A stretch of DNA of 64,000 bases from Deltaproteobacteria bacterium (GCA_038150265.1 JAYOTF010000010.1:1-64000); one strand, 5' to 3'; positions 1 to 64,000 are shown, numbered from the stretch's first letter. Numbers and translations are program-made. The notes: a model not told the origin generated them from the letters alone.

Positions 1-20
1 TCCTCATGAGATTCTCCCTT
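1..20 (-). other. Probable start (ATG at 7) and Shine-Dalgarno of a minus-strand gene leaving the window, divergent from the LysR gene
   Basis: CAT at 5-7; TTCTCCCTT at 12-20 reads AAGGGAGAA on the minus strand; a divergent target is typical of LysR loci. Confidence 0.4.
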
Positions 21-330
21 GTGAGGTTGACAAAAAACGTCGTGCAAGCGTGACGTGCGAGTTATTGTTAGAGTGGTTCGAGCAAAAGTCAATGAATTAT
101 TTACACGCGTAAAAAATGCATCTCACTCTTGGACTCCCCCTTCCACTGGTACAGGAACCAGAGCCGTTTGGCAAGGCTGTTTCAGAGGGCTCACGCGGAA
201 ATCGCCCCACCCGTTTTCGCTGCTCTCCAGGACCGAAGCGCCCCCGATCGGCTCCTGTTTGCCTCCACCTCCAGGCGCAGCAATCAGGCAAACGTAAAAT
301 TCATGAAATTTTTTTCATCATAAAAGCACC

Positions 331-1227
331 ATGAACCTGAATCACGTCCTGACCTTCATCCGCATTGCCGAGGAAAAGAGCTTCAGCGCAGCCGCCAAGC
401 GGCTCAAACGCCCCCGCTCGCAGGTCAGTCGCGACCTGCGTACCCTGGAGGAAGCCGTGGGAGTTCGCCTCCTCGAACGAACCACCCGGCAGGTTCGCCT
501 GACGGAATCCGGGCACCTTTACTTTCAGCGTTGCAAGAACCTGCTGGATGAACTCGAAGACGCGACCCATGCCCTTCAGGGCATGCAGGACGAGTTCAAG
601 GGCGTGATCCGGGTGACCGCTCCGGTGGACCTTGGCGCGGCGGTGATTTCCGGACTGATTGCGGAATTCCTCAAGAGCTACCCGCAGCTCCGGGTGGAGC
701 TGAACTGCACGCAGCGGGTCGTCAACCTGATTGAGGAACAGTACGACCTCGCCATCCGGGTGACCAAGAGCCTGAGCGATTCATCCTTTGTCGCGCGGTT
801 GCTCGGGAAGACCCCCATGGAGCTGTACGCCGCTCCGGAGTGGCTCGCTCAGCAAACCGGCTTGACGCATCCGGAGCAACTGAACGCCCTCAGCGGCATT
901 GTCTTTCAGCCCCGCAGCGGCGCCATTGAGTGGCAACTGTTCCACCACACTGAGCAGGTCACGCTCAAGCCGGTCGGCCAGTTCATCACAGATGACCTCA
1001 GAGGAGCGCTACAGGGGATTTTGCAGGGGTTGGGTTATGGCGTGCTGCCTGATTTCATGGCTCAGGCCGATGTCCTCGAGGGACGGCTCGTGCGTTTGTT
1101 TCCAGAATGGAAAGGAGAGTTCGGAGCCGTTTATGCGGTGTACCCGAGCCGCCGGCTCCTGCAGCCCAAGGTGAAGGCGCTCCTGGATTTTCTGCAGGAG
1201 CACTTTTTGGAAAAGACCAAAGGCTGA
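331..1227 (+). CDS. LysR-family transcriptional regulator (CrgA/DmlR-like)
   Basis: N-terminal HTH 'SFSAAAKRL...SQVSRDLRTLEEAVGVRLLERTTR'; C-terminal 'VYPSRRLLQPKV'. Confidence 0.95.
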   Translation: MNLNHVLTFIRIAEEKSFSAAAKRLKRPRSQVSRDLRTLEEAVGVRLLERTTRQVRLTESGHLYFQRCKNLLDELEDATHALQGMQDEFKGVIRVTAPVDLGAAVISGLIAEFLKSYPQLRVELNCTQRVVNLIEEQYDLAIRVTKSLSDSSFVARLLGKTPMELYAAPEWLAQQTGLTHPEQLNALSGIVFQPRSGAIEWQLFHHTEQVTLKPVGQFITDDLRGALQGILQGLGYGVLPDFMAQADVLEGRLVRLFPEWKGEFGAVYAVYPSRRLLQPKVKALLDFLQEHFLEKTKG

Positions 1228-1228
1228 G

Positions 1229-2227
1229 CTACGCCATCCACTCCGGAACCGGCAGGTTCTTCGACCGGAGGAAGTCTGGATTGAAGAGCTTGGACTGGTA
1301 GCGGGTTCCGGAGTCGCAGAGGATGGTGACAATGGTTTTGCCAGGCCCCAGCTCCCGGGCCAGGCGAATGGCACCCGCGACATTGATCATCGCAGAGCCT
1401 CCCAAGACGAGCCCTTCTTCCCGGATGAGGTCAAACCCGATGGGAAGCGCCTCTTCGTCGCTTACCTGAAACGCCAGGTCCACCGGCGCCTCTTCCAGGT
1501 TGGCGGTGATGCGCCCTTGCCCAATGCCTTCCGTGATGGAACCGCCTTCGGCCTTCAGTTCGCCGTTCTGGTAGAAGTTGTAAAGTGCCGCGCCCATTGG
1601 ATCGGTCAGCGCCACCACGATGTTGGAATTGAACCCCTTGAGCGCCTGCCCCGTTCCGGCCAACGTCCCCCCGGTTCCTACGGCGCAGGTAAAGGCGTCC
1701 ACGGTTCCATTGGTCTGCTCCCAGATTTCCGGGCCGGTTGTCTCAAGGTGCCCCTGCCGGTTGGCGACGTTGTCAAACTGATTGGCCCAGATTGCCCCAT
1801 TCGGTTCAGAAGCCGCCAGCTCTTCAGCAAGGCGTCCGGAATACTTGACGTAGTTGTTGGGGTCCCGGTAGGGCACTGCGGGGACTTCGCGCAAGTCGGC
1901 GCCACAGAGGCGGAGCATGTCCTTCTTTTCCTGGCTCTGCGTCTCCGGAATCACAATCACCGTGCGGTACCCTCGGGCATTTCCCACCAGCGCCAGACCA
2001 ATTCCGGTGTTGCCGGCCGTCCCTTCGACGATCACGCCTCCGGGCTTCAGGAGCCCCTTCTTTTCCGCATCCAGCACAATTGCCTTGGCGGCCCGGTCCT
2101 TCACGGAACCTCCGGGGTTCATGAATTCAGCCTTCCCCAGAATCGTGCAGCCCGTCAGTTCTGAAGCCTTCCGGAGTTTGATCAGGGGGGTATGGCCAAC
2201 GGCATCCAGGAAATCAGAGCGGATCAT
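1229..2227 (-). CDS. cysK: Cysteine synthase (O-acetylserine thiol-lyase)
   Basis: PLP motif 'KAEFMNPGGSVKDR', 'TAGNTG', 'GTGGT'; start trimmed to MIRSDF at 2227. Confidence 0.9.
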   Translation of the reverse strand: MIRSDFLDAVGHTPLIKLRKASELTGCTILGKAEFMNPGGSVKDRAAKAIVLDAEKKGLLKPGGVIVEGTAGNTGIGLALVGNARGYRTVIVIPETQSQEKKDMLRLCGADLREVPAVPYRDPNNYVKYSGRLAEELAASEPNGAIWANQFDNVANRQGHLETTGPEIWEQTNGTVDAFTCAVGTGGTLAGTGQALKGFNSNIVVALTDPMGAALYNFYQNGELKAEGGSITEGIGQGRITANLEEAPVDLAFQVSDEEALPIGFDLIREEGLVLGGSAMINVAGAIRLARELGPGKTIVTILCDSGTRYQSKLFNPDFLRSKNLPVPEWMA

Positions 2228-2265
2228 GGTCGATTCAAGCAAAAGATGAGGGGAGTGGGTGAGGT

Positions 2266-2979
2266 TCAGGAAGTGGTGTGCGCCGCCGGGGAGAGGTCCC
2301 GGAGGCGTTCCAGCAACGGATGCAGCTGCCAGCCACAGAGCGCCCCCAGCGTTGCCCAAAATCCAGCAGAGGTCACCAGCGAGGCGATCGCAAACTGGGC
2401 CGAAAGTTCTGCCGGAACCGAGCTTTCAGCAGCAACCGGATGCGGGGCCCCCAGCACATGAGGCGCCAGCAAGAACGCGCCCCCGGCGACTCGCAGCCAA
2501 AGGGCCGAGCCCTCCAGCAGCAGCGTCAGCCCCGTCACGCTCGCGAGAACGGTTCCCAGCCACCACACCTGACGATCCGCCAGGTCTGCAGCGGCCATGC
2601 CGGGCAGTTCCGGGGGCAGCCCCAGGGCGGGAGCCACGGAAAAGGCCAGAAAGGCCAACAGCCCCCACGTGACCCCAGATGCCGCGTCTACCGCTTTTCC
2701 GCGCCAGAGCATTCCAGCAGAGAGCAAGAGGGCAAACGCCCAACCGGTGACCACATTCGCAATGGCGGTCCAGCCTCGGCGTTCCCAGCCGTTTTCCGGA
2801 GTCCACTCGTGAATGTGCTCGCTACCGTCGGCATGGAGGTGAACCACTCGCTGCTCCAGCCGTTCGGCTTCCAGCAGCAGGGGAGTGACCCGGAGTTCCT
2901 GAAGCAGGCTGGTCGCCAGCCCGGCAAGCAAGCCAGCCAACAAAATGGTCCGCAGCAGTCCCCAACCCAGCGGGCGCAT
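2266..2979 (-). CDS. cbtA: Cobalt transporter subunit CbtA
   Basis: 'LGLPPELPGMAAADLADRQVWW', His-rich loop, 'PHVLGAPHP'. Confidence 0.9.
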   Translation of the reverse strand: MRPLGWGLLRTILLAGLLAGLATSLLQELRVTPLLLEAERLEQRVVHLHADGSEHIHEWTPENGWERRGWTAIANVVTGWAFALLLSAGMLWRGKAVDAASGVTWGLLAFLAFSVAPALGLPPELPGMAAADLADRQVWWLGTVLASVTGLTLLLEGSALWLRVAGGAFLLAPHVLGAPHPVAAESSVPAELSAQFAIASLVTSAGFWATLGALCGWQLHPLLERLRDLSPAAHTTS

Positions 2980-3161
2980 CAGTGACAGGGAAAGGTGAAG
3001 GCGTGACGGGTGTCGTGAGCGGCGTTGTGAATCACCGAGTTGCTTCCCTGGGCAAAGCCCACCAGCGTCAGAAGCCCCACACCCACCAGTCCCAGCACCA
3101 GGGCCAGGCGCAAGCGTAGAGACGTCGAAGAGGAAGCAGAGGAGGTGTGTGTGATCATCAT
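2979..3161 (-). CDS. cbtB: Cobalt transporter subunit CbtB
   Basis: One TM helix followed by the signature 'HNAAHDTRHAFTFPCH'; start trimmed to 3161. Confidence 0.9.
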   Translation of the reverse strand: MMITHTSSASSSTSLRLRLALVLGLVGVGLLTLVGFAQGSNSVIHNAAHDTRHAFTFPCH

Positions 3162-3232
3162 AGAAATTCCATCTAAAAGTTTTGGAACGGTAAGATGCGT
3201 GAAATTGGGACCAATCGCAAGCATCAACTGGC

Positions 3233-4582
3233 TCAGGGACCTTTGAGCTGGAGCAGCGTCCGCATCAGTTCCGGAGCCTGGGCAAAGTGCAGGTGGACGT
3301 AAGAGGCATGCAGGTTGGAGGTCCGGAACCCTTCCCGACGCGTGACGCCCGTGGAGTGCCGCGTGACCTCCCAGGCGTTTGCCAACGCTGCCTCTTCCAG
3401 CCACTCGGAGTGGTGAAATTCATGACCACGGGCTTCCGGAAGCTCCGGGTGCCGCGCGTAGCAGTACCCGAAGTGCTGGAGGTGAGAAGTCATCCGGACG
3501 TTTCCCGGCACGGCGCCCACCATCGGAAAGCTCTGCTTGCCGCTCGTGTGCAGCCGCTCCGCCAGCAGCATCAGGCCTCCACACTCGGCGTAACAGGGGA
3601 GCCCGCCGGCAATCGCTTCCCGCAGGCTGTGGCGCATGGGGGCGTTTTCCGCCATTTGCTCTGCAAAGACTTCCGGAAACCCGCCTCCCAGCACCAGCGC
3701 ATCCAGGTTCCGGGGCAGCTCCGAATCTGCCAGCGGTGAGAAGGACACCACCTCCACCCCTTCCTGCTCCAGCCAATCCAGGTTGGCCTGGTAGTAAAAA
3801 TGAAAGGCTTCATCCTGCGCCACCCCCACCCGCTTCCGCTTCTCCAACAACGGCACGGGTGGCGTGAAACGCGCGACCTCAAACGTTTCCAGACCCCGGA
3901 GCTGCTGCTTCAGCGCGGCGAGGTCGAGGTGCTCTTCTGCGAGCCGGGCCAGCTGAGTCGCAGGCGGAAGGGGCTGTTCGGTGCTGGCTCGCAGTCCCAA
4001 ATGCCGCTCGGGCCACTCCAGCTCGGCAAGGCGTGGCACCAGTCCCAGCAACGGGACCTCCAGGTTCCAGGCCTTCCGGAGGTAGCGCGCGTGGCCATCG
4101 CTGCTGACCTGGTTGAGGATCACGCCGATGATGCGCTCCGGACCCGCGTCTTGCAGGAAGCCACGGATGCTGGACAGGACCGACCGTCCGGCATGAGCGA
4201 CGGGCACCACCAGCACCACCGGCCAGTTCAGCCAGCGGGCCAGTTCCAGCGTGCTGCCGGCGTCAGAGTCCGGGTGGGCTCCATCAAACAGCCCCATCAC
4301 GCCTTCTCCCACCCCCAGCGCTTGAGCCGTCAACCGCTCGGCTGTTGCCCGGACCGCGGCTTCGCCCATGATCCACGAATCCAGGTTGACCGACGGTGCC
4401 TCGGCATAAAACCGGTGGTAGCCCGGGTCAATGAAATCTGGTCCCACCTTGAACGGCTGCAGGGGGTAGCCCGAGGCTCGCAAGGCTGCCAGCAACAGGG
4501 CCATCAGCGTGGTCTTCCCACTGCTGCTCTGTGTTCCCGCCAGAAAGAATCCCGGATGTGGAGGAGGGAGCAAGGGGGGCAT
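3233..4582 (-). CDS. cobB: Cobyrinate/hydrogenobyrinate a,c-diamide synthase
   Basis: 'SSSGKTT', 'FKVGPDFIDP', 'EGVMGLFDG', GATase 'YAECGGLM', 'GHEFHHS'; start trimmed to 4582. Confidence 0.93.
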   Translation of the reverse strand: MPPLLPPPHPGFFLAGTQSSSGKTTLMALLLAALRASGYPLQPFKVGPDFIDPGYHRFYAEAPSVNLDSWIMGEAAVRATAERLTAQALGVGEGVMGLFDGAHPDSDAGSTLELARWLNWPVVLVVPVAHAGRSVLSSIRGFLQDAGPERIIGVILNQVSSDGHARYLRKAWNLEVPLLGLVPRLAELEWPERHLGLRASTEQPLPPATQLARLAEEHLDLAALKQQLRGLETFEVARFTPPVPLLEKRKRVGVAQDEAFHFYYQANLDWLEQEGVEVVSFSPLADSELPRNLDALVLGGGFPEVFAEQMAENAPMRHSLREAIAGGLPCYAECGGLMLLAERLHTSGKQSFPMVGAVPGNVRMTSHLQHFGYCYARHPELPEARGHEFHHSEWLEEAALANAWEVTRHSTGVTRREGFRTSNLHASYVHLHFAQAPELMRTLLQLKGP

Positions 4583-4689
4583 GGCTTTTCTTGGCTTCTC
4601 TGCTGAAAGAAGAAAACACTCGCAAAAAGGGGCATCATACTGGGTTTGTGACCTCAAGGCAACTTCTGCGGAAGCGTCTTGGATTGAAT

Positions 4690-4718
4690 TTGATTTCCCG
4701 CCCCTTCAGTGCTATATA
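4690..4718 (+). promoter_or_regulatory. Sigma70-type promoter for gltBD
   Basis: TTGATT-N17-TATATA with an extended -10 TG in an AT-rich patch. Confidence 0.6.
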
Positions 4719-4976
4719 AATTAGTTCCTTTAAGCTCGGGAGCCCAGAATCACCCCTGTCGTCCCTGACTGGAACATGGGTCATGGGGACTGGATCTGGC
4801 GTCAAAATCGTCCCACCTTAAGAACAAACATCCCGACGCGACTTTGTGGTGGAAGCCGGTCGTCAACAGTCCGCTCCTGCTTTCCAACCCCCGATTCGGG
4901 ATCCTCTAGGATTCAAGCAACAACCTGTCGGCTGGTCCCGACAAGCCCGGAACAATCATTTGAAGAATGGATTCTC

Positions 4977-9467
<4,491 letters not shown>

Positions 9468-9508
9468 CTCGAACCTGACTCTTCAAACCGCAAACACGAC
9501 AAACGCGT

Positions 9509-15680: not shown

Positions 15681-17764
<2,084 letters not shown>

Positions 17765-18895: not shown

Positions 18896-20179
18896 CTAGC
18901 GTTGATTCAGGGGAACGTAGTCACGGGAGTTGGGGCCCGTGTAGATCTGGCGCGGGCGGCCGATCTTGGGGTTGCTGTTGTGCATTTCCAACCAGTGCGA
19001 GATCCACCCGGGCAGGCGGCCCATCGCAAACAGCACCGTAAACATTTCCGTGGGGAAGCCCAGGGCCTTGTAGATGATGCCGCTGTAGAAGTCGACGTTC
19101 GGGTAGAGGTTCCGCTCAATGAAGTACTCGTCCGTGAGGGCGACCTCTTCAAGCTGCTTGGCAATGTCGAGGAGCGGATCCTGAACGCCCACCATGTTGA
19201 GCACCTTGTCGGCGTAGGACTTGATGATCTTGGCGCGCGGGTCGAAGTTCTTGTAGACCCGGTGGCCAAAGCCCATCAGCCGGAAGCTGGAGTCCTTGTC
19301 CTTGGCCATTTCCACAGCTTTCTGGACGTTGCCGTTCTCTTCGTCGCGGATGTACTCCAGCATCTCCAGAACCGCCTGGTTCGCTCCGCCGTGCAGCGGT
19401 CCCCAGAGGGCCGCAATTCCGGACGAAATGGAGGCAAACAGGTTGGCCTGGCTGCTTCCCACCAACCGGACGGTGGAGGTGGAGCAGTTCTGCTCGTGAT
19501 CGGCGTGGAGGATGAACAGCACGTTCAGGGCTTCCACAAACTCCTTCGGCACCTCGTATTCGGTGGCCGGGACGCTGAACATCATGTTCAGGAAGTTCTC
19601 ACAGTAGGAGAAGCGGTTCTTCGGGTAGATGACGGGCTGGCCAATGTTCTTCTTGTGGGCCCAGGCGGCAATGGTCGGGAGCTTGCCCATCAAGCGCCAG
19701 ATGGCCAGGTCGACAGCAGCATGGTCGGTGGCGCTGAAGTCTTCATAGAAGGTCGAGAGCGCACAGACCACACACGAGAGGATCGCCATCGGGTGGGCAT
19801 CCTTCGGGAACGCCGCATAGATGTGCCGCAGGTCCTCATGGAGCATCGTGTGGCGGGTGATGTGGTTCTCAAAATCCGCCAGTTGGGTGCTGCTCGGCAG
19901 CTCTCCGTAAATGAGCAGGTAGCTCACCTCAAGAAAATTGGATTTTTCCGCGAGCTGCTCAATCGGATACCCGCGGTAGCGAAGGATGCCCTGCTCTCCG
20001 TCCAAAAAGGTAATCGCGCTGGTGGCAGCCCCGGTGTTGACGTATCCGGGATCCAGGGTGATGGCCCCGGTCTGCGCCCGGAGTTTGGCAATGTCAATTC
20101 CCACTTCACCTTCAGAACCTACCACCAGCGGCAGTTCCACATTTTTATCGAGAATTTCCACTCGTGCGTTCTGACTCAT
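18896..20179 (-). CDS. gltA: Citrate synthase (hexameric type)
   Basis: 'LHADHEQNCSTSTVR', 'GPLHGGANQ', 'GFGHRVYK', 'YPNVDFYSG'. Confidence 0.98.
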   Translation of the reverse strand: MSQNARVEILDKNVELPLVVGSEGEVGIDIAKLRAQTGAITLDPGYVNTGAATSAITFLDGEQGILRYRGYPIEQLAEKSNFLEVSYLLIYGELPSSTQLADFENHITRHTMLHEDLRHIYAAFPKDAHPMAILSCVVCALSTFYEDFSATDHAAVDLAIWRLMGKLPTIAAWAHKKNIGQPVIYPKNRFSYCENFLNMMFSVPATEYEVPKEFVEALNVLFILHADHEQNCSTSTVRLVGSSQANLFASISSGIAALWGPLHGGANQAVLEMLEYIRDEENGNVQKAVEMAKDKDSSFRLMGFGHRVYKNFDPRAKIIKSYADKVLNMVGVQDPLLDIAKQLEEVALTDEYFIERNLYPNVDFYSGIIYKALGFPTEMFTVLFAMGRLPGWISHWLEMHNSNPKIGRPRQIYTGPNSRDYVPLNQR

Positions 20180-20451
20180 GCGCTCCTTTTCGAGTTGGGG
20201 GGAGACGAAGGCGGCTTCTGCGTGAGAAAACCCGGCCTGCGGTAAACGAGAATTCCAAGATTAGCGAACTGATCTCTCAGAGGCAAGTGCTTCGCGTGTC
20301 CGTCATGAGGGCTCCGTCAGACTCCCCAGGCACGGGCTCCACCGGGCTCCTGCGCTTTCCGTCCCCAGAGCCTCCGGGAGGGGCTTTTGCTCTCATGCGT
20401 GAGAGAAAACAAGGTTCTGATTTTCGAACTGAACAAGCCTTACGCTTCTTT

Positions 20452-20480
20452 TTGACAAATTTCCCCTAAAAGTACATCTT
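20452..20480 (+). promoter_or_regulatory. Putative sigma70 promoter for ORF 20591
   Basis: Perfect TTGACA-N17-CATCTT in an AT-rich intergenic patch. Confidence 0.4.
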
Positions 20481-20590
20481 GTTGAAATCAATTTTCAACC
20501 CGACCGGTCTGCAGCGGCTTCCCGGACTCTCCCTCCAGCCGCTCCCCAGACGGGTGCCTCTGAACGACCCTGTGTTTTCGCCGAGTATTC

Positions 20591-21118
20591 ATGACTGACG
20601 ACAAGAGTTTGACTCAGCCTCACACCTGTTCCATTGAGGACTGGGAAGACAAAATGGAGAAGCTGTTTTGGGCGGCGGTGCACCCCTTTCATCAGGGGCT
20701 GGCCATCTTTACCAACACGGAGCGGCGCTACACGGGCGACCCGGAAGGCCAGCTGATCCCACGGGTGTCCATGCGGATCAAGAAGGAGCAAAGTGGCGAA
20801 ATGAAGCAGTTCCTCAAGGGCCTCACCCGAGAGGGCTTCAACAAGGTCTTTGCCTTCAAGGATACGCCCCCAGAGGGGCCCTACCAGTTTCTCAAGCTGG
20901 TGGACACCCCCCTCCCGAACAACTCGTATGTGTACTTCGTTCACTCCGTGCCTCCCACCGAAAAAATGGGGGCCGAGCGCGTTGACATGGAGCGGGAGCG
21001 GCAGGCCATTCTTGTTTACTCTCCCATCAAGACCAGCCTTGACTTCATGCGGATCATCACCGCCATCAACGATGTGCTGAATCCGGAGGAAGCGCCTCCT
21101 GCCCAAGCAGCCGAGTGA
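20591..21118 (+). CDS. Hypothetical protein (175 aa)
   Basis: Host-like codon usage; fills the gap between divergent gltA and the convergent deaminase; no family recognised. Confidence 0.75.
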   Translation: MTDDKSLTQPHTCSIEDWEDKMEKLFWAAVHPFHQGLAIFTNTERRYTGDPEGQLIPRVSMRIKKEQSGEMKQFLKGLTREGFNKVFAFKDTPPEGPYQFLKLVDTPLPNNSYVYFVHSVPPTEKMGAERVDMERERQAILVYSPIKTSLDFMRIITAINDVLNPEEAPPAQAAE

Positions 21119-25858: not shown

Positions 25859-27055
25859 ATGGCCTTGAGCGGTCCAGAACCGGAGGTAATCGTCATTGGA
25901 GGCGGCCCAGCCGGTCTGGCCTCAGCGATCGCCTTTGCCCGCCAGCACCTCCGGGTTTGGGTGCTGGAGCCTCGCCCCTATCCCATTGTCAAACCGTGCG
26001 GAGAGGGCATCATGCCCACGGGCCTGGAACAGCTCCAGGAGTTGGGCGTGCTGCCCTTTCTTCAAGAAGTCCCGCACCTTCCCTTTCTCGGCATCACGTA
26101 CATCTCGGCAGGAGGGGTCACCGCGACCTCCTCGTTTCAGGAAGGTCCGGGGTGGGGGGTGAAGCGTGACGCGCTCTCTCAGGCGCTTGAGCACGCTGCG
26201 GCTGCCTGCAGCACCCTGACGATCCTCCCTCTGAAAGCAACGGTTGCCCTCACCCCAGACGGTCCGGAGGTCCACACCGAAGCAGGCTCCTGGCGTCCTC
26301 GCCTGGTCGTGGGAGCCGATGGCCTGGCGTCTCAGGTCCGGAAGGCCGCCGGGTTGGGAAAGCCTCGGGGGCGCCTGCAGCGGTGGGGCGTGCGCCAGCA
26401 CTTTCAGGTGTCCCCCTGGAGCGCCCATGTCGAGGTTCACTGGAAGTGGGGGGCGGAAGCGTATGTCACCCCAGTGGCTCCGGATCAGGTGGGAGTGGCC
26501 ATCCTCTGGGACCGCGACCGCGTACCGCCGCAGGCTGCAGGAAAGCAGCTGTTTCACGACCGCTTGAGCCGATTTCCAGACCTGGCCGCTCGGCTGCAGG
26601 GCGTCCCTGCGACCGATGAGCCCCAGGCTGTGGGGCCGCTGCACCGTCCGGCCCAAGGGGTCACCCGCCCAGGCCTGGCGCTGGTGGGTGACGCCTCCGG
26701 CTACCTTGATGCCATCACCGGCGAAGGCCTGAGCCTCGCCTTCAAGCAAGCGGTTGCTCTGGGAACGTGGGTCGGCCCAGCGGTCCGGTCGTCTCCAGCC
26801 GAACTCCAGTGGGCCTTGCAGCACTACGCAAGCGCTCATGCTGCGATGACCGCGCCCATTTACCAGGTCACCCGGATGGCTCTGCTGCTCCGGAACTTTC
26901 CCCGGCTGACGGATCGCCTCATGCGTGTCTTTCAGCAACATCCGGACTGGTTTCAGCACTTCCTTTCTGCCAACATGGGAGTGGTTCCTGCGTGGAAGCT
27001 TCCTCCTCAGGCCTGGCTCCGGATGCTCCAGGGCCTCGTGTTCTCACCGAAATGA
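25859..27055 (+). CDS. FAD-dependent oxidoreductase/monooxygenase (geranylgeranyl-reductase-like)
   Basis: 'GGGPAG', 'KPCGEG', 'GADG', 'LVGDASGYLDAITGEG'; start trimmed to 25859. Confidence 0.85.
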   Translation: MALSGPEPEVIVIGGGPAGLASAIAFARQHLRVWVLEPRPYPIVKPCGEGIMPTGLEQLQELGVLPFLQEVPHLPFLGITYISAGGVTATSSFQEGPGWGVKRDALSQALEHAAAACSTLTILPLKATVALTPDGPEVHTEAGSWRPRLVVGADGLASQVRKAAGLGKPRGRLQRWGVRQHFQVSPWSAHVEVHWKWGAEAYVTPVAPDQVGVAILWDRDRVPPQAAGKQLFHDRLSRFPDLAARLQGVPATDEPQAVGPLHRPAQGVTRPGLALVGDASGYLDAITGEGLSLAFKQAVALGTWVGPAVRSSPAELQWALQHYASAHAAMTAPIYQVTRMALLLRNFPRLTDRLMRVFQQHPDWFQHFLSANMGVVPAWKLPPQAWLRMLQGLVFSPK

Positions 27056-27145
27056 GAAAACTTACGTGAGAAATTGACAATACCCGTGGATCTATGAGAA
27101 ATTTATCTCACGTTTCCGGAACTCAAATAAGAGTTTTATCTCTTA
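27041..27145. promoter_or_regulatory. Promoter (TTGACA at 27074) overlapped by TGAGA/TCTCA operator-like repeats
   Basis: TGAGAAA at 27053, 27067 and 27095; palindromes TGAGA-N6-TCTCA (27095-27110) and TAAGAG-N6-CTCTTA (27128-27145). Confidence 0.55.
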
Positions 27146-27148: not shown

Positions 27149-27378
27149 GACACCCTTGCGCTGAGTCAGTGGGGTGTTTCAATTTTCTACAAACCCCTGA
27201 GCCTGCCTGATTACTGGGGGCAGCGCCTTTTGAGGAGGGAGACTTTCCTGACTGGCCCAAGCTGGTAACGGGTTTGCAGCAAGTGACGCCGAAGTCCGCT
27301 GCAAGAGGGCAGAGTGATTTTGTAACTACTCGAAATTCCCTGCCTTTTCGCCCCTGTTACCTCATTTGGGAGAGTGTC
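27149..27378 (+). ncRNA. Candidate structured cis-regulatory leader RNA
   Basis: Several stems found by eye (CAAACCC/GGGTTTG, CTGCCT/GGGCAG, TTGCAGC/GCTGCAA, GAGGGCAG/CTGCCTTT); the 5' GACACCCT can pair with the RBS region. Confidence 0.35.
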
Positions 27379-28196: not shown

Positions 28197-29357
28197 ATGC
28201 AAGTTATCAAAGACGATCAAAGCCGAGAACCCTTCATCCGAGGCATCTTTGCCTACAAACTCATTCAGCGGGGCATGAGCTTCGAGGATGCGTACCAGAT
28301 TGCCAAGGATGCCAAGAATCGTCTGGCCAAGACTCAGGAGGTGCGTTCCTCAGACCTGCTTCAGCTGGCCGATCGCCTGGTTGCCGAGCGTTTTGGGGCC
28401 GAACGCCTTCAGCGCCTCAAGCCCCGGCTGGAGCCTCAGACCGCCCGCATTGTGGTGCAGCGCACCAACTCCGCCTCTCCGTTTTCCAAGGGGCTGATGA
28501 CCCAGTCCATCACGGCGTCGGGGTTGCCTCCGGAGGAAGCCTATCGGCTGGCGTATGAAATTGAATCGGAGCTGCATCAGTCCGGACGGACGAAGATCGA
28601 CCACGAGGAGTTGTTCAAGCTGGTCACCCGCAAGATCAGCGAGCATTATGGCAAGCAGACGGCAAGCCTCTATGGGCTCGCCAGCCGCATCAATCAGCTG
28701 GACCGTCCGGTGGTGCTGCTGATCGGAGGCGCGTCGGGCACCGGGAAGTCGACCCTTGCCACGGCCCTGGCCTCTCGGCTGGGCATCAACCAGGTCATTG
28801 GAACCGACTCCATCCGGGAGATCATGCGGATGGCCTTTTCGCGAGATCTGCTCCCCACGCTCCACCACTCCTCTACTGATGTCGGAAGCAAGCTGGAGCT
28901 TTCTGGCGCCCGGGAGTTTCAGCGCATGATTGCCGGCTTCATGCTCCAGTCGCAGCAGGTCAATGTGGGGGTGCAGGCGGTGATTTCCCGGTCCATTGAA
29001 GAGCGGACCAGCATCATTCTGGAAGGCGTTCACCTCATCCCGGCCATTGAGCAGGCCATGCGGATGAAGGAAACCCGGGCGTATCTGGTGCCCGTGGTGG
29101 TGACGTTGATCAGTGAGAAGGCTCACCGGAACCGCTTCCTGCAACGCGGCGAGCAGGCCACCCTGCGGCCTTCTGAAAAGTACCTGCGTCGCTTTGAGAA
29201 CATCCGGGAGGTCCACGATTACCTCCTGAGCTTCGGCAACCGCGAGGACCTGGACCTGATCAACAACGAGAACTTCGACCTCGCCATCAACGAACTCACC
29301 CAGACCATCATCAGCTCCCTCCACGAACAGGTCCAGCACTACAAGAAGCACCGGTAG
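28197..29357 (+). CDS. 2-phosphoglycerate-kinase-like P-loop kinase with two N-terminal ATP-cone-like domains
   Basis: 'PFIRGIF...AY' and 'PFSKGLM...AY' repeats; 'IGGASGTGKST', 'TDSIRE', 'ILEGVH'. Confidence 0.8.
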   Translation: MQVIKDDQSREPFIRGIFAYKLIQRGMSFEDAYQIAKDAKNRLAKTQEVRSSDLLQLADRLVAERFGAERLQRLKPRLEPQTARIVVQRTNSASPFSKGLMTQSITASGLPPEEAYRLAYEIESELHQSGRTKIDHEELFKLVTRKISEHYGKQTASLYGLASRINQLDRPVVLLIGGASGTGKSTLATALASRLGINQVIGTDSIREIMRMAFSRDLLPTLHHSSTDVGSKLELSGAREFQRMIAGFMLQSQQVNVGVQAVISRSIEERTSIILEGVHLIPAIEQAMRMKETRAYLVPVVVTLISEKAHRNRFLQRGEQATLRPSEKYLRRFENIREVHDYLLSFGNREDLDLINNENFDLAINELTQTIISSLHEQVQHYKKHR

Positions 29358-29381: not shown

Positions 29382-29798
29382 TCAGGCCGAGATCGCCTTG
29401 ATGTTCTCCAGGATCTTCACGACGTTGGAGCGGACCAGCTTGATGTCGAGGTCGTGGCCATCCTTGAAGTAGGGGTGGGTGTGGGGGTCAATGCCAAGCT
29501 TCTGCATCACCTTCATCATGAAGACCCGCTCCTCATCCTGAAACTCCCCATCCGCACCGGCCACCAGCGCCAGCATGTCAATGAGGGCATTCTTGGCGTC
29601 ATCGGAGGTCACCTGCTGGAGCATCGATCCCAACGACGGGTTTTGCTTGAGCTGCTGCTGCTCCTCTGGCGTAATGCGCCCCGCCTTGAAGGTGGCCATG
29701 AGGACTTTTTTTTCGGCAGGATGCATCTCCCCGTCTGAGTGCGCCAGGTGGCTCACCACACCAAGGATGGTCAGAAATTCTTCTCGATTGATCGACAT
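29382..29798 (-). CDS. TerB-like domain protein
   Basis: Two 'A..DG....E' motifs ('AHSDGEMHPAE', 'AGADGEFQDEE'); start trimmed to 29798. Confidence 0.75.
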   Translation of the reverse strand: MSINREEFLTILGVVSHLAHSDGEMHPAEKKVLMATFKAGRITPEEQQQLKQNPSLGSMLQQVTSDDAKNALIDMLALVAGADGEFQDEERVFMMKVMQKLGIDPHTHPYFKDGHDLDIKLVRSNVVKILENIKAISA

Positions 29799-29900
29799 GA
29801 GTGCTCCAAAAGCGTAACCTGCACAGGCAGGCAAGGTTTGAGACAAAGCCCGTTAAGCCGAGATCACTATAACGCACCCCAAGGAAGGTACAAGCAGAGG

Positions 29901-31404: not shown

Positions 31405-31469
31405 CCTTGCTCCTTGAGGGAAAATGATTGTTGGGGAGACAAATCCTCACTTTAGCAGATTTTTTCCTG

Positions 31470-32231
31470 CTACCAGAGGGAAATCGTACCCCTTCCGGGC
31501 CAATAGGCCTCTCCTTGCCACGGGTTGAGTCCAAACTCGAGGGAAAGCCACTGAATCCGCACTCCCTCGTGCCACCCCACGGAGAAACCGGCCAGCCCCC
31601 AGAGGGTAACCTGCAGGCCCAGGCCTCCGGGAGTGGACTGCACCCATGGCCCCAGCGGGAAGTCCTTCCCGATCGCTGTCGGCGGCAGCGCCACCCCCAA
31701 CTCCGGAAGCTCCCGGAGGACATGTGCCACAAAGGTGTTGCTGTTCGGACCCGGCCACACGCGATAAAAGAGGGGCGCCGGGTAGCTCGCCACCGCCGCT
31801 TCCAGCCGAGGCAGCAAGGCCGTTGCTTCTGGCCCCCGCACCTCGCCCAGCAGCCGCGCCGGGTTGCCATACCACGAGCGGTTCGGAGGAGCCGACGACT
31901 GCGCCACCACCGGCAGGCCCCGGTACTGACGCCACCCGATCACCTCATGGATCACAAAACGAGACGCCCCGGGCTTCCGGACCGCCACCCAGCAGTGATC
32001 GGCAAAGGCGCCCCGCCACCCGTACGTCCGGGCCGCATACACCTGAATCCACGCCTCCTCGGTCCCCACTTCTTCGAGTGGACGGTCCGGAGCCCTCCGG
32101 GCCTGGCTCCAGTGGGTGTGCAGGTCGAGTCCTCCGAACTTCAGCATCCAGAGCGGTCCCGAAAGCAACACGGCGGTCAGGAGCAGCAACAGTCCCATGG
32201 TCAGGAGTCCCTGTTTGAGTCGTTTCCACAT
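31470..32231 (-). CDS. DUF3750-family protein
   Basis: '[12 protein letters not shown]', '[12 protein letters not shown]', 'LPPTAIGKD'. Confidence 0.8.
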
Positions 32232-32441
32232 CCAGCATCTCGTCCAGTCGCTTGGCCTCTCGGCCCAGCGGGGTCAGGGGGTCAGGGGCCTAACAGGCCC
32301 AAAAGCGGGAAAGGGGAGAAGCGTTTTTCTTCCCAAAAAGGTAGAATCTTCTGGACCAGATCACAACTGTTCCGTCTCACCCGTTGCCGGGAGCCGGAAC
32401 CGCGCCCCCTTGACCGTGAATGTTTTTTGAGTGAGTGCCTC

Positions 32442-36173
<3,732 letters not shown>

Positions 36174-52476: not shown

Positions 52477-52540
52477 GGGGCTCTCCCGTTCAGGTTTTCA
52501 GTCAAACCGATAATTTACTAAACCCCCTTGAAGGTTCAAT

Positions 52541-55168: not shown

Positions 55169-55177
55169 GAGAATGGG

Positions 55178-55945: not shown

Positions 55946-56006
55946 GATGTTTCAGTCAGTTGATGGTGTCGATAAAAGGAACGAGGTCCCTCTGATGCAG
56001 AAACCG

Positions 56007-57137: not shown

Positions 57138-57139
57138 GA

Positions 57140-58318: not shown

Positions 58319-58357
58319 GAAGGCATTGAGAACGTGGTGAAATCAAGAGGGCGGGAA

Positions 58358-58379
58358 CCCGGCCCCATGAGAGGCCGGG
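58358..58379 (-). terminator. Intercistronic stem-loop after aapJ (mRNA stabiliser or partial terminator)
   Basis: CCCGGCC-N8-GGCCGGG just downstream of the binding-protein stop; weak U-tract. Confidence 0.45.
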
Positions 58380-58401
58380 AATGATTTCTGATGCCGATGA
58401 A

Positions 58402-59430
58402 TTAGCGGATCGGCGGAGCGTAGATCAGGCCACCCTTCGTCCAAAGAGCGTTCACGCTACCGTCACGGGTCAGCTGAAGCGGAGTGTTGGCGCCCACGTT
58501 GCGCTCGTACATCTCGCCGTAGTTGCCCACCTGCTTGATCATGCTGTAGGCCCAGTCAGCAGACACGCCCACCGACTCGTTCAGGTCGCCTTCCACACCC
58601 AACAGGCGCTTGATGGAAGGATTGTCGCTGCTGCGCATCTGGTCAACGTTTGCCGAGGTCACTCCGAGCTCTTCGGCATTGATCAGAGCATTCAGCGTCC
58701 AGCGTGCCAGGTCGGCCCACTGCGGATCATCCTGACGGACAACGGGTCCGAGCGGCTCCTTGGAGATGATCTCCGGCAGAACCATGTGCTCATCCGGGTT
58801 GGTCAGCTTGGTGCGCTGAGCGGCCAGTCCGGAGCGGTCCGTGGTGTAGACGTCACAACGTCCGGCGTCATAGGCGCCCACCACTTCGTCCGCCTTCTCA
58901 AAGGCCACCAGCTCAAACTGCATGTTGTTCGAGCGGAAGAAGTCGGTCAGGTTCAGCTCGGTCGTGGTTCCGGTGTTGGTGCAGGCCGAAGCACCGTCCA
59001 ATTCCCTGGCACTCTTCACGCCGAGGCTCTTGCGCACCATGAAGCCCTGTCCGTCGTAGTAGTTCACTCCCACGAACTCCAGACCCAGCGTCGCGTCACG
59101 CTGCATGGTCCAGGTGGTGTTCCGGGCCAGGACGTCCACCTCTCCGGAACGCAGCGCCTCGAAGCGAGCCTTCGCCGAAAGCGGGGTGAACTTCACCTTG
59201 GACGAGTCCGCGAACACGGCAGAAGCCATGGCTCGGCAGAAGTCCACGTCCAGTCCAGACCAGTTGCCCTGGTCGTCCGGATTCGAGAACCCGGGCAGGC
59301 CCTGGCTCACACCACACTGAATGAATCCCTTGGCTTTCACCGCACCCAGCGTGCCGGAACTGTGGCCGGCCGCCATCGCGACGCCACCCAGCAAGGCTAC
59401 CGAAATGAAGGACATGAATAATTTTTTCAT
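58402..59430 (-). CDS. aapJ: General L-amino acid ABC substrate-binding protein
   Basis: 'CGVSQGLPGFS', 'DVDFCRA', 'RNTTWT', 'YYDGQGF', 'ISKEPLGP', 'YAPPIR'; start trimmed to 59430. Confidence 0.93.
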   Translation of the reverse strand: MKKLFMSFISVALLGGVAMAAGHSSGTLGAVKAKGFIQCGVSQGLPGFSNPDDQGNWSGLDVDFCRAMASAVFADSSKVKFTPLSAKARFEALRSGEVDVLARNTTWTMQRDATLGLEFVGVNYYDGQGFMVRKSLGVKSARELDGASACTNTGTTTELNLTDFFRSNNMQFELVAFEKADEVVGAYDAGRCDVYTTDRSGLAAQRTKLTNPDEHMVLPEIISKEPLGPVVRQDDPQWADLARWTLNALINAEELGVTSANVDQMRSSDNPSIKRLLGVEGDLNESVGVSADWAYSMIKQVGNYGEMYERNVGANTPLQLTRDGSVNALWTKGGLIYAPPIR

Positions 59431-59616
59431 TACGTCTCTCCTCGTAGAGTTGATAGTAGGACAAATGCCCAATCTTGATTGAAAAAGGCTCTTCAATTGA
59501 GCCCTGCTTCCCGATTGAAGTCAAGGTTTGAACGAAAAAAAGTCGATCTCCAACAGGGGTTGGAGGCAGCTCCTTCCCGAATCGCCAATTTTTTTCGTCT
59601 TTAATGTAACGAAGTG

Positions 59617-61764: not shown

Positions 61765-61794
61765 GTGATTTTCTTGTCAAGAGGGAGGGGGAGG

Positions 61795-63594
61795 TCAGTC
61801 GTTCCCCATGCCAACCGACTCCAGGACTTCGGCCGGCTGACTGGCAAGGTTTGGCGCCGGAGAGACCTGTTCCGGCTTGGGCAACACGTTGTGGAGGAGC
61901 AGCGTCCGCTGAGCAATCTCCCGGAAAGCGGGAGCGGCCGCCTTGCTGCCATAATGCTGAGACTTTTCAGGCTCTTCCACCACCACCAAAATGGTGGCCA
62001 GCGGAGACTGGGCGGGCACAAACCCAACGAAGGAGGCCCAGAATCGGTCCTTGGAGTATTCCTTGAGCTTCGTGTCAAAAATCTGGCTGGTCCCCGTCTT
62101 GCCGGCCACGTCATAGCCCGGAATGGAGGCATTGGGGGCCGTTCCTCCCGGCTCTGTGACCAGCACCATGGCATCGGTAATCGCCTTGGCCACCGCCTTC
62201 GAGACCACCCGGTGGCGCTCTCCGGGACCAAAGTGGTAGGTCTCTTTCTTGTAGGTCAGGTCCTGCACTGACTCGCCCTCAAGGTTCCGGACGTGGGAAA
62301 CGATGTGCGGCTGCACCCACTCGCCTTCATTCGCAATCGCATTGACCGCCGTGGCAATCTGCAGGGCCGACGTGGTAATGCCCTGTCCAAAGGTGATGTT
62401 GGCGTGGTCCACTTCCGTCCAGGTATCCGGAGCGTTGAGCAGTCCGGGGGCTTCTCCGGGCAGTCCGGAGTTCGGACGCTGCCCCATGCCGAAGCTCCTC
62501 AGGTACTCATAGAGGCGCTGCTTGGGCAGGAGCATGCCAATCTTGGCGGCACAGATGTTGGAGGACTTTTGGAGGACTTCCGGAACCGTCAGGACGCCGT
62601 GCGGGGTGCTGTCGTTGATGATGCGATCGCCCACGCGGTACTTCCCGTTTTCGCAGAAAAACTGCTGGGCCGGGTTCACCACCCCTTCATTGAGCGCGGC
62701 AGCCAGGGTGACCACCTTGAGCGTCGAACCCGGGTCGTACCCGAGCGTTACCAGCGGGTTGAGGTGGAACCGGCGGTCGTACTCGGCGTAACGGTTTGGG
62801 TCAAAACCGGGATAGGTCGCCATGGCCCACACGGCGCCCGTCCTGGGCTCCAGCACCACGGCAGATCCGCGCTTGGCGCCTGTGGAAAGCACGCTCTTGC
62901 GCAACGCCTGCTCTGCAATGTGCTGAATGCGGCTGTCAAGGGTCAGCTGCAGGTCATACTCTTCAGGCTGCACAAGTTCTTGCATCGGCAGTGAACGCCG
63001 CTGGGCATCGGCCTCCACAACATACGTCACCTCTTCACCGGCCAACAGCTTCTGGTACTTGGCCTCCAGGCCTTCCAGGCCCTGAATGTCAATGCCGGTG
63101 TACCCCAGCACGGCGCCGGCGAGGTTGCCGTTCGGATAAATCCGCCGGTATTCCTGCTGAAAGAACACGCCTTCAAGCTTGAGCGCAGCAACCTTCTGGG
63201 CCCGGTCCGGATTCATCTGCCGGTCCAGCCACACAAAGGAACGCGAGGAGCTGAGCTTCTTCTGCAACGTCCCGACAGACTCCCCCAGCACCGGAGCCAG
63301 GCGCCGAGCGGTTGCTGCAGGAGAGGAGATGGAAGACGGGTCGGCATAAAGCGAAGGAACCGGAACCGAGACCGCCAGGAAGCGGCCATTGCGGTCAAGG
63401 ATCTTGCCCCGCCGCGGCTCCAGCTTGACGGTCCGTTGCTGACGGATCCGGGCCTGCTCCACAAAGTAGTCCCCACGCCACACCTGCAGGTAAAAGACCC
63501 GGCCCAAAATGGTGAGGAAGCCGAGGCTCAGCATGGCCATCAGGACGAGGAGCCGCAGGTTGAAGCTGTAGACTTTGATGCGGAGCTTATTCAC
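61795..63594 (-). CDS. ftsI: Class B penicillin-binding protein (septal PBP3)
   Basis: 'RRGKILDRNG', 'PGSTLK' (SxxK), 'SSN', 'KTGT'; follows ftsL. Confidence 0.92.
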   Translation of the reverse strand: MNKLRIKVYSFNLRLLVLMAMLSLGFLTILGRVFYLQVWRGDYFVEQARIRQQRTVKLEPRRGKILDRNGRFLAVSVPVPSLYADPSSISSPAATARRLAPVLGESVGTLQKKLSSSRSFVWLDRQMNPDRAQKVAALKLEGVFFQQEYRRIYPNGNLAGAVLGYTGIDIQGLEGLEAKYQKLLAGEEVTYVVEADAQRRSLPMQELVQPEEYDLQLTLDSRIQHIAEQALRKSVLSTGAKRGSAVVLEPRTGAVWAMATYPGFDPNRYAEYDRRFHLNPLVTLGYDPGSTLKVVTLAAALNEGVVNPAQQFFCENGKYRVGDRIINDSTPHGVLTVPEVLQKSSNICAAKIGMLLPKQRLYEYLRSFGMGQRPNSGLPGEAPGLLNAPDTWTEVDHANITFGQGITTSALQIATAVNAIANEGEWVQPHIVSHVRNLEGESVQDLTYKKETYHFGPGERHRVVSKAVAKAITDAMVLVTEPGGTAPNASIPGYDVAGKTGTSQIFDTKLKEYSKDRFWASFVGFVPAQSPLATILVVVEEPEKSQHYGSKAAAPAFREIAQRTLLLHNVLPKPEQVSPAPNLASQPAEVLESVGMGND

Positions 63595-63950
63595 TGGGAG
63601 ACGATTTCCTCAAGGTAAGCGAACTGGTCCAGTTTCGGTGGCGAGAGGTTCAGGTGCCTGGAGGCAATGCGATCGAGTCGTTGCGGCCGTGTCAGAAACT
63701 GCACCTCCACTTCCAGCAGGTCAATGTCTTCCCGGAGCTGGGCCCGCTGGCGTTCGAGGCTTTGCACTTCGTGGGCGATTTCGCGATAATTGGCCCACTG
63801 CCACAGGTACCCCACGCATCCGGCGGTAATGAGCACCGACATCAGGACCACAATCTGAACCGACTGGACGGCATTCCAGCAAAAACGCGGCACCAGCTTC
63901 CAGCGAAACTGATGATTGAGAACCTTGGGACGTTGCGAGAAGGCGTTCAT
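63591..63950 (-). CDS. ftsL: Cell division protein FtsL-like
   Basis: One TM helix plus coiled coil 'L..P.RL..IA..L.L..P'; GTGA overlap with ftsI. Confidence 0.8.
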   Translation of the reverse strand: MNAFSQRPKVLNHQFRWKLVPRFCWNAVQSVQIVVLMSVLITAGCVGYLWQWANYREIAHEVQSLERQRAQLREDIDLLEVEVQFLTRPQRLDRIASRHLNLSPPKLDQFAYLEEIVSQ

Positions 63951-64000
63951 GACTTCTGATCAAACCACAGCAAAGAAACAAAAAGCAGAGGAACTCCAGT

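Follow-up and report, generated by a model that had tools for sequence, protein, structure and literature searches.

TCCGGA, a HIP1-like iterated palindrome with helically phased neighbouring copies in a genome of Deltaproteobacteria bacterium

The highly iterated palindrome (HIP) of cyanobacteria, HIP1 (GCGATCGC), is a hyper-abundant short palindrome that occurs in all reading frames and in non-coding DNA and is found lineage-wide with exceptions; its abundance is argued to reflect either a chromosome-level function or a repair bias (PMC4390886, PMC5861425). Alternate HIPs are hexamer-scale palindromes rich in guanine and cytosine (GC) that are sporadically hyper-abundant in single lineages, namely GGCGCC in Calothrix PCC 7103, rCCGGy/GCCGGC, with a CCGG core, in Oscillatoria PCC 10802 and GCsGC in Cyanothece PCC 7822 (PMC4390886). 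The function of HIPs is debated, and methyl-directed repair, chromosome structure and DNA uptake have been put forward (PMC4390886, PMC5861425, bioRxiv 10.1101/2024.09.10.611283, PMC13756078). Here we describe the word TCCGGA in a stretch of 64,000 nucleotides from Deltaproteobacteria bacterium (GCA_038150265.1, JAYOTF010000010.1:1-64000; the whole stretch is called the window below), in the genome to which it belongs and in relatives of the same phylum.

Other systems in which short words are read throughout a genome also serve for comparison. The DNA uptake sequences (DUS) of Neisseria and the uptake signal sequences (USS) of Pasteurellaceae are 9-12 bp long and asymmetric, and occur about once per kb or more densely, evenly spread in core genes and in all frames. 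They shape the encoded peptides and differ in dialect between lineages, and it is drive, not a function of each site, that maintains them. SeqA needs two GATC sites on the same face of the helix, and GATC occurs near chance frequency. TCCGGA itself is recognised by the restriction enzymes BspEI, AccIII and Kpn2I.

The window corresponds to positions 1-64000 of contig C10 in a genome (G000) of 3,393,712 bases in 87 contigs that is rated 97.8% complete. Genes were called with a simple iterative codon-usage picker of open reading frames (ORFs), which gave 2,645 ORFs covering 86% of G000. For 88 genomes of the phylum the ratio of TCCGGA to AGGCCT, the reversed word, was used as enrichment index, and a genome was called rich if this ratio was at least 3.

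Enrichment, uniform occupancy and turnover of TCCGGA

The window contains 198 copies of TCCGGA (3.1 per kb), compared to 25.1 +/- 5.3 in 100 dinucleotide-preserving shuffles, none of which reached 198. A sequence-only reading of the window had proposed that TCCGGA behaves as a HIP1-like highly iterated palindrome, with an excess in all frames and between genes. Its counts (16 in 1-5000 and 19 in 33001-36000) and every position that it listed, including 27115, were exact, and its GC content of ~63% had to be corrected to 61.2%. In the whole of G000 we found 9,711 copies (2.86 per kb, or one per 343 bp), where base composition predicts 1,120. The resulting observed/expected ratio (O/E) of 8.67 is the highest among all hexamers of this genome, palindromic or not. 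The runner-up palindromes are CTGCAG (3.15) and TGATCA (3.11), and the control palindromes ACCGGT, AGGCCT and TGGCCA have composition O/E values of 0.66, 1.46 and 1.88, respectively.

One explanation to be weighed is that preferred codons (TCC, GGA, CCG, CGG, GAA), dipeptides and abundant 5-mers produce the excess. TCC, CCG and CGG are indeed the commonest codons of their families in G000, GGA makes up 26% of the Gly codons, and a maximal-order Markov model that conditions on the two constituent 5-mers leaves an O/E of only 1.22 (z = 19.6). This model absorbs the signal under test, because TCCGG/CCGGA is itself the most over-represented 5-mer (3.1-fold; Markov z = 64), with 54% of its copies inside TCCGGA. 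When synonymous codons were shuffled within each gene, which keeps the proteins and the codon usage of each gene, 8,589 copies were observed and 2,057 expected (O/E 4.18, z = 161), with O/E values of 3.92, 3.27 and 5.13 in the three frames. The controls stayed near 1 (ACCGGT 0.87, AGGCCT 1.18, TGGCCA 1.32), and shuffling the order of codons gave an O/E of 6.76 for TCCGGA. Under these codon-aware nulls, the outcome named in the sequence-only reading as a refutation, an O/E near 1 or an equal excess of control palindromes, did not occur. Spacers are enriched like genes: those of 20-150 bp hold 129 copies compared to 14.9 expected (O/E 8.7), and those of 150-400 bp have an O/E of 7.1. Moreover, the excess is common to relatives of 43%, 57% and 61% GC and missing in G014 (45% GC; 37 sites, 32.4 expected), and codon usage cannot yield the helical phasing described below. 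The shuffles, the spacers and the phasing together refute an artefact of composition or codon usage, to which we give next to no credence. The enrichment acts at the level of DNA and not of codons, and the comparison with HIP1 drawn from the window is a fair one: one hexamer palindrome is enriched in every frame and in spacers, in a lineage-specific manner.

The enriched element is the plain hexamer and not a piece of a larger repeat, because its flanks carry almost no information: beyond a weak preference at +1 (A 0.32, G 0.30) they are almost uninformative, and no information was seen past +/-1-3 bases. Among all NCCGGN words, the odds ratio for T and A together at the outer positions (T...A) is 2.04. 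A dispersed repeat of the REP (repetitive extragenic palindrome), BIME (bacterial interspersed mosaic element) or MITE (miniature inverted-repeat transposable element) type was rejected, as no longer shared element was seen and 8,589 of the 9,711 copies lie inside called genes. We also rejected a resident restriction target, since such a word would be avoided and TCCGGA is enriched 8.7-fold.

We define a compatible position as a place where the encoded amino acids would permit TCCGGA. In G000, 8,589 of 20,877 compatible positions (41.1%) are occupied, with 33.7%, 37.5% and 49.0% in the three frames. The odds ratio over the synonymous-shuffle expectation is ~6.4 and the O/E in spacers is 7-9, so that the log-odds advantage is ~2 either way. 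Among the 1,818 genes with at least five compatible positions the occupancy z-score has a variance of 1.002, exactly as in a binomial, and occupancy correlates neither with GC at third codon positions (rho 0.03) nor with conservation (rho -0.07, n = 150). The distances from one copy to the next follow an exponential distribution (coefficient of variation 0.98; median 238 bp compared to 237.6 bp expected; 103 gaps above 1.5 kb compared to 121 expected), and counts per 5 kb are near-Poisson, with a mean of 14.5, a variance of 16.5 and a minimum of three copies. Because the gene-to-gene variance is binomial and the gaps are exponential, the force is uniform: it is blind to genes, stands at an equilibrium of gain and loss and amounts to a log-odds of ~2 per copy. 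Such a uniform layer would result from a selfish drive, acting through biased repair or through uptake, and equally from weak selection if the population is very large. Regular spacing, as for strand marking, was rejected on account of the exponential gaps. Near gene starts of G000 occupancy falls to 0.27 (first 90 nt) and 0.28 (first decile), compared to 0.41-0.45 elsewhere, which may reflect mis-called starts or constraint at translation starts.

Turnover was followed in codon alignments of orthologues between G000 and fetched samples of two congeners, G002 (253 genes; amino-acid identity 88.7%; identical codons at 61.8% of identical residues) and G001 (194 genes; 77.3% and 54.7%, respectively). 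At positions compatible in both genomes the odds ratio for sharing a site is 3.7 with G002 and 1.9 with G001. In an informal comparison, this sharing roughly matches the residual synonymous identity (62% and 55%) plus an equilibrium occupancy of 30-50%. The positions of TCCGGA change at about the pace of synonymous sites, with occupancy staying at 30-50%. The 231 one-base differences from G002 show no strong bias to the outer bases: 98 are at positions 1 and 6, 87 at positions 3 and 4, and 46 at positions 2 and 5. The commonest changes were position 1 to C (38), 4 to A (30), 5 to C (24), 6 to G (21) and 3 to T (17).

We also looked at the encoded dipeptides. In the proteome of G000, Pro-Asp/Glu, which belongs to frame 2, the frame with the highest occupancy, is 1.53 times as common as its reverse; among 83 pairs of orthologues this ratio is 1.15 in G000 and 0.82 in the motif-free G014. 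Ser-Gly and the frame-1 tripeptide showed no such contrast between forward and reverse. These data are only suggestive of a DNA word that may have shifted protein sequence, because the two genomes differ by 16 GC points. A paired test of protein changes against G014 (444 compatible positions in G000 only, 319 in G014 only) was discarded, as it is confounded by the GC contents of 61% and 45%.

Among the relatives, the enrichment is patchy across the phylum and TCCGGA is rich in many of them. The ratio is at least 3 in 26 of the 45 genomes of the window's own family (f1), in none of the 19 genomes of the sister family f2 and in nine of the 19 genomes of family f7. Within f1, the rich genomes make up 3/3 in genus g1, 15/18 in g11, 3/3 in g12, 2/3 in g4 (the third at 2.98) and 2/2 in g6, together with the single genome of g3; in genus g2 the ratio is ~1 in all nine genomes. 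In fetched DNA, the O/E of TCCGGA is 7.6 in G001 (60% GC), 7.6 in G013 (57% GC), where it is the top hexamer, and 9.0 in G018 (43% GC), which shows that the enrichment in relatives is independent of composition (43-60% GC). The sequence-only reading had called for a comparison with relatives and for depletion in islands. The former revealed a shared, patchy enrichment; of the latter nothing was seen, as G000 has no cold islands of foreign DNA (at least three sites in every 5 kb), and a binned assembly may lack such islands. Within g11, three genomes (G041, G049 and G050; 51-57% complete) have a ratio of only 1.6, compared to 3.9-32 in the other 15 species. As density is independent of completeness, this trio looks like a case of loss or gain within the genus.

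At the other end of the range, the ratio is 0.25 or less in 11 of the 88 genomes. In G086 and G087 (f7; genera g42 and g43) the avoidance is specific to TCCGGA, with TCCGGA/AGGCCT counts of 76/1619 and 15/1435; ACCGGT is only mildly low (1908/3125 and 975/2256). A restriction system specific for TCCGGA would be expected to leave such a footprint. CCGG is avoided more generally in G083, G084 and G023 (78/1286, 44/1162 and 177/2122 for ACCGGT), and in G084 an HpaII-type endonuclease gene lies beside a C5 methyltransferase gene, forming a restriction-modification pair (L117:341-2472). The avoiders gave no lead to an enzyme with TCCGGA specificity, as their methyltransferases are unrelated to each other (26-34% identity) and to those of G000.

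Helical phasing of neighbouring copies in two modes

The distances between all pairs of TCCGGA copies in G000 peak at 9, 19-20, 30-31, 41-42, 51-52, 61-63, 72, 82-84, 93, 104 and 114 bp, and the deepest trough is at 11-17 bp. After removal of the 3-bp codon periodicity the spectrum has its peak at 10.48-10.50 bp. The amplitude of the phasing is 0.175 over 12-300 bp; it decreases from 0.40 at 12-64 bp to 0.18 at 65-127 bp, 0.13 at 128-232 bp and ~0.08 at 254-316 bp. The phase is constant over all distance ranges and coherent beyond 250 bp, that is, for at least 25 turns of the helix. An identical offset came from each of six random eighths of the contigs. Pairs at 12-17 bp occur at 0.21-0.29 of the random-occupancy expectation, and in-phase bins beyond 30 bp at 1.2-1.4.

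Random occupancy of the compatible positions gave an amplitude of 0.030 +/- 0.014, with a maximum of 0.068, and none of the 200 replicates reached 0.07. The compatible positions themselves are unphased (0.022). The 3.6-residue periodicity of alpha-helices was rejected as source on these two results. None of the 40 next-commonest hexamers exceeded 0.10, and the highest values at 10.5 bp were those of words overlapping TCCGGA; the near-cognates TCCG and CCGG share the phase, and other CCGG sites do so weakly. AA/TT, and also WW, has a 10.4-10.5-bp periodicity of its own, to which TCCGGA has no phase relation (amplitude 0.0007). No partner word was found among all 4-mers and the common 6-mers (best z 4.6 among the 256 4-mers). 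A general periodicity of the genome was rejected for these reasons. The phasing is a short-range coupling between copies: the helix serves as ruler, the effect is specific to the word, and, like torsional coherence, it fades within a few hundred bp. Since a mutational process that works site by site does not predict a coupling of pairs, something that senses two copies at once is needed.

The relatives have a similar period (10.35-10.6 bp) and differ in offset. Phasing was analysed in fetched DNA of G018 (400 kb), G013 (793 kb) and G001 (398 kb). G018 has an amplitude of 1.03 at 12-64 bp and an offset of ~0, with peaks of 6 times the expectation at 20-21 bp and 5.5 times at 31-32 bp. In G013 the amplitude is 0.75 and the offset 5.7 bp, with peaks at 27, 37.5, 47.5, 58 and 68 bp. 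G001, which belongs to the window's genus, has an amplitude of 0.53 (99th percentile of the null 0.43) and an offset of 5.9 bp. For whole genomes we counted same-face pairs (30-32 plus 40-42 bp) and opposite-face pairs (36-38 plus 46-48 bp) and applied two-sided binomial tests; the bins were picked after the histograms of G000 and G013 and the genomes are related, so the p-values describe single genomes and are not a test across genomes. The relatives fall into two modes. Same-face pairs prevail in G000 (220:116, p = 1.5e-8), G002 (118:83, p = 0.016), G018 (204:28, p = 3e-34), G012 (57:27, p = 0.0014), G005 (53:17, p = 2e-5) and G015 (35:17, p = 0.018). Opposite-face pairs prevail in G001 (58:120, p = 4e-6), G013 (20:143, p = 4e-24) and G011 (7:20, p = 0.019). 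No significant bias was observed in G016, G007, G004 and the motif-poor genomes, with the exception of G006 (18:7, nominal p = 0.043).

In G018, 595 of 628 copies and 43 of 47 in-phase neighbour pairs lie in long ORFs, and the phased clusters comprise 60 doublets, three triplets and one quadruplet. Because 43 of the 47 pairs are inside long ORFs, the phased pairs are not promoter operators. A location inside genes rather than promoters would also suit an explanation without any protein, in which TCCGGA is anisotropically bendable or A-philic and selection tunes curvature or supercoil geometry by phasing. The period in G000 and its relatives is that of the relaxed double helix, and same-face spacing would add bends where opposite-face spacing would cancel them. 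However, the usual curvature code of AA/TT and A-tracts is unrelated in phase to TCCGGA, and no other GC-rich word shares the phasing. It would also be hard to explain in this way why one exact hexamer stands ~5-fold above one-base neighbours such as TCCGGG and CCCGGA, and why congeners would follow opposite curvature rules. We therefore consider DNA mechanics alone a very unlikely cause.

Within the window, the 198 copies are spread over genes of both strands (48, 56 and 89 in frames 0, 1 and 2), and nine are not fully inside a called gene. The genes that bear them are ordinary housekeeping genes, e.g. for glutamate synthase, SecDF, TGT, citrate synthase, glycine cleavage, AspRS, SerRS and a penicillin-binding protein. 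The densest gene (31428..36173, plus strand) has 25 sites (5.3 per kb), which include the 19 in 33001-36000. It encodes a hydantoinase/oxoprolinase fusion of 1,581 residues, in which the A and B subunits are joined in one frame and ~340 N-terminal residues have no Pfam match. An intergenic copy is located at 27115..27120, between a gene ending at 27055 and one starting at 27274. The longest stretch free of sites (19424..21081, with 1,664 bp from copy to copy) takes in an ORF of 175 codons and part of the gene for citrate synthase, and fits the exponential gap distribution of G000. With preferred distances of 20, 30.5, 41, 51.5 and 62 bp taken from the genome-wide histogram, same-face pairs can be pointed out at 16397..16453 (51 bp from centre to centre, ~5 turns), 3270/3322, 26889/26941 and 28529/28581 (52 bp each), 35793/35834 (41 bp), 57543/57563 (20 bp) and 61297/61360 (63 bp). 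Rfam and tRNA scans of the window gave no match. The gene at 28197-29357 (plus strand) encodes a protein of 386 residues with an unusual pairing of an ATP-cone domain and a weak match to a zeta-toxin-like P-loop kinase; it adjoins a TerB-like gene (29382-29846, minus strand).

A putative pairwise reader and competing explanations

The reading that we tentatively prefer is that TCCGGA is read in pairs by a putative two-fold-symmetric DNA-binding protein with a nucleoid-organising role, a system HIP1-like in kind. TCCGGA would be the word of an abundant, sequence-specific protein of this symmetry, whose action would give each copy the same small advantage throughout the chromosome (log-odds ~2). 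Copies would continually be gained and lost and yet remain steady at ~40% of the positions that the proteins permit. The putative reader would engage two copies by bridging, looping or side-by-side contact. Pairs torsionally aligned to its geometry would be favoured and misaligned close pairs disfavoured, which would leave a 10.5-bp ruler in the spacing. The geometry would also set a preferred dihedral angle, and thereby a same-face or an opposite-face rule that can differ between species. The data show the enrichment, its uniformity, the rapid turnover of positions, the phasing with its two modes and the patchy distribution. From these we infer a reader that is a protein and not the mechanics of bare DNA, an action on pairs and a role in nucleoid organisation. 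A two-fold-symmetric bridging or looping protein is the simplest agent for the coupling of pairs, and the tetrameric restriction enzymes of the CCGG family and SeqA are precedents for the reading of two sites. Chromosome organisation was one of several functions that the sequence-only reading had listed; it gains most from the helical phasing. Among the possible roles we rank nucleoid organisation first, followed by uptake or recombination and then by methyl-directed repair; the latter two also need a reader to account for the phasing.

Uptake or recombination would act through a signal that spreads by molecular drive, similar to DUS and USS: DNA with the word would be preferred in uptake or recombination, and the word would thereby spread in the core genome of the population. 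The even, Poisson-like spread, the presence in every frame, the equal enrichment of coding and non-coding DNA, the fast turnover, the lineage dialects and the shift in protein sequence all suit such a signal, and ComEC is present in G000. ComEC is, however, found in 31 of 31 relatives regardless of the motif. The HHH_3 matches in G000 are confined to Tex-like frames of 760-930 residues, and no small ComEA-like protein was seen among them. Known uptake sequences are longer and asymmetric, whereas TCCGGA is a 6-bp palindrome with uninformative flanks, and phase coherence over 25 or more turns is not expected of an uptake receptor. HIP1 itself has been reported to increase transformation in a way that depends on methylation and is now proposed as an uptake sequence (bioRxiv 10.1101/2024.09.10.611283, PMC13756078). 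On balance we regard an uptake signal as unlikely.

Methylation and repair had also been suggested as the cause from the window alone. In the HIP model of Elhai (2015), an orphan methyltransferase would mark TCCGGA or CCGG, methyl-directed repair would preferentially fix mutations that create sites, and the word would be a by-product or a strand mark. This ratchet is the closest published analogue; alternate HIPs, one of them with a CCGG core, accompany cognate methyltransferases (PMC4390886). It would yield uniform, gene-blind occupancy and fast turnover, and one site per 343 bp is roughly the density that a strand mark requires. Six-frame family searches of the 97.8%-complete G000 gave no match to PF00145 (C5 methyltransferase), PF02384 (N6_Mtase) or Vsr. 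Two genes of the PF01555 family were found, both with an SPPY motif. The restriction-enzyme families PF07832 and PF09015 had no match in G000, which is uninformative, as nothing was found in control genomes either.

The first PF01555 gene (C45:2844-3617; 258 residues, SPPY...DPFAGGG) is island-borne, directly follows a gene for a retron-type reverse transcriptase, and has its sole orthologue in G001 (71% identity). In this locus (coordinates of L001) the reverse transcriptase gene (35-1444) overlaps the start of the small SPPY N4/N6 methyltransferase gene (1441-2217) by four bases, and an ORF of 311 codons with no Pfam match follows. The second (G000:C51:248-1384, within C51:2-1384; DPFMGGG...SPPYPG) is an orphan conserved throughout the order and cut by the contig end. 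Its only match to a solved structure, confined to the SPPY motif, is the DNA cytosine-N4 methyltransferase 8s9n (E = 1.7e-5), and in G002 and G023 its neighbours are housekeeping genes with no nuclease adjoining. Its orthologue in G002 has 730 residues (L011:451-2643) and a long Arg/Asp/Glu repeat tail; this N-terminal tail of ~300 residues consists of repeats of the (E/D)DRPRR(E/D)DRPRY type, with a weak LED_rpt match.

Such an orphan is what the ratchet would call for, but its presence does not follow the motif. Orthologues occur in 25 of 30 relatives, among them the motif-poor g2 and f2: the gene is present in motif-poor G003 and G014 (49% identity), in 11 of 12 f2 genomes and in the word-avoiding G023, and it was not found in nine f7 genomes, five of them motif-rich and the others motif-poor or word-avoiding. 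By presence and absence, neither PF01555 gene tracks the motif. Cognate methylation of TCCGGA may nevertheless exist, with the two genes as candidates. A process that works on single sites also does not predict the 10.5-bp coupling, the depletion at 12-17 bp or the two phase modes, and one-base differences from G002 do not cluster at the outer bases. Gene content lends the methylation-driven origin no support, and we consider the ratchet unlikely.

Several observations weigh against the pairwise reader that we prefer. On a large scale, the Poisson-like spread shows none of the domain or landmark structure expected of a chromosome organiser. Site-level purifying selection of the HIP1 type is not seen, because individual sites are poorly conserved: only 303 of 737 G000 sites (41%) are also present in G002 and 177 of 611 (29%) in G001, and at positions compatible in both genomes the probability of a site, given a site or no site in G000, is 0.52 or 0.23 in G002 and 0.44 or 0.29 in G001. 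The data suit a selfish drive no less than an advantage for the cell. For the change of face rule within a genus, the preferred reading has only an ad hoc explanation. No phasing is visible in the window alone (37 in-phase and 36 out-of-phase pairs at 12-127 bp), 64 kb being too small. Neither PF01555 gene appears to track TCCGGA, judged by gene content, ComEC is equally indifferent to the motif, and no reader was found among the tested genes (the orphan methyltransferase, ComEC and the HHH_3 proteins), which are present or absent irrespective of enrichment. Finally, every gene-based statistic depends on a crude in-house ORF caller.

Phasing would be a direct physical signature of something contacting two copies at once. 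The pairwise reader predicts that a dimeric or tetrameric protein exists, that its geometry differs between G000 and G001 and that its binding depends on the phase of the pair. The force is strong: it has fixed ~9,700 sites, set the use of several codons and apparently shifted the dipeptide content, with no heterogeneity from gene to gene. The patchy distribution (26 of 45 genomes in f1, 0 of 19 in f2, and avoiding genera) offers natural contrasts for finding the responsible gene. A bolder version, which we think somewhat unlikely, is a new kind of bacterial chromatin code in which one palindrome at ~40% of its permissible positions is read in pairs by a bridging protein whose face rule flips within a genus. 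If true, the abundance would have been left by a sequence-specific organiser of the nucleoid, or by a selfish reader, whose action has reshaped the choice of codons and even the content of Pro-Asp/Glu in much of an uncultured marine phylum.

Comparison with known systems

TCCGGA shares with HIP1 its hyper-abundance and its presence in all frames and in non-coding DNA, and differs from it in several respects. HIP1 has 8 bp and is 15- to 300-fold enriched, whereas TCCGGA has 6 bp and is enriched 8.7-fold; conservation of HIP1 sites between genomes is reported to exceed that of controls, whereas TCCGGA positions turn over at about the synonymous rate; and the periodicity described for HIP1 is of 10-90 kb, compared to 10.5 bp for TCCGGA (PMC5861425). 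In addition, highly transcribed regions are reported to be poor in HIP1, in contrast to the purely binomial gene-to-gene variance of TCCGGA. HIP1 has known cognate methyltransferases, whereas the only candidates for TCCGGA are the two PF01555 genes. Each alternate HIP is likewise described with a methyltransferase of matching specificity (PMC4390886). Alternate HIPs are sporadic in single genomes, whereas TCCGGA spans 26 of 45 genomes of one family and nine of 19 of another.

In its density, even spread, occurrence in all frames, peptide shift and lineage pattern TCCGGA resembles DUS and USS, from which it differs by being a 6-bp palindrome and by the lack of a ComEA-type protein in the HHH_3 search of G000. 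To our knowledge, pairwise 10.5-bp phasing is not a property of uptake sequences. The Dam GATC/SeqA/MutH system is similar in that a short palindrome with a few copies per kb is read by proteins genome-wide, and it is the best-known precedent for a pairwise, face-dependent reader. Its proteins are known and it needs no enrichment, whereas G000 has no evident cognate enzyme of the adenine or C5 type in the methyltransferase family searches described above. Restriction-modification systems of the BspEI type recognise the same word, and the avoidance expected of them fits G086 and G087, which stand for two genera of the same class, whereas G000 is instead enriched.

Among the HIP literature searched we found no description of helical phasing of a hyper-abundant palindrome, and 'helical' occurs nowhere in the main text of PMC4390886 or PMC5861425; judged by titles and abstract openings, no relevant paper on the abundance of TCCGGA in this lineage was found either. 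The TCCGGA case lies outside the cyanobacteria, and to what the examined parts of the HIP papers mention it adds a pairwise phasing of 10.5 bp and two alternative phase rules.

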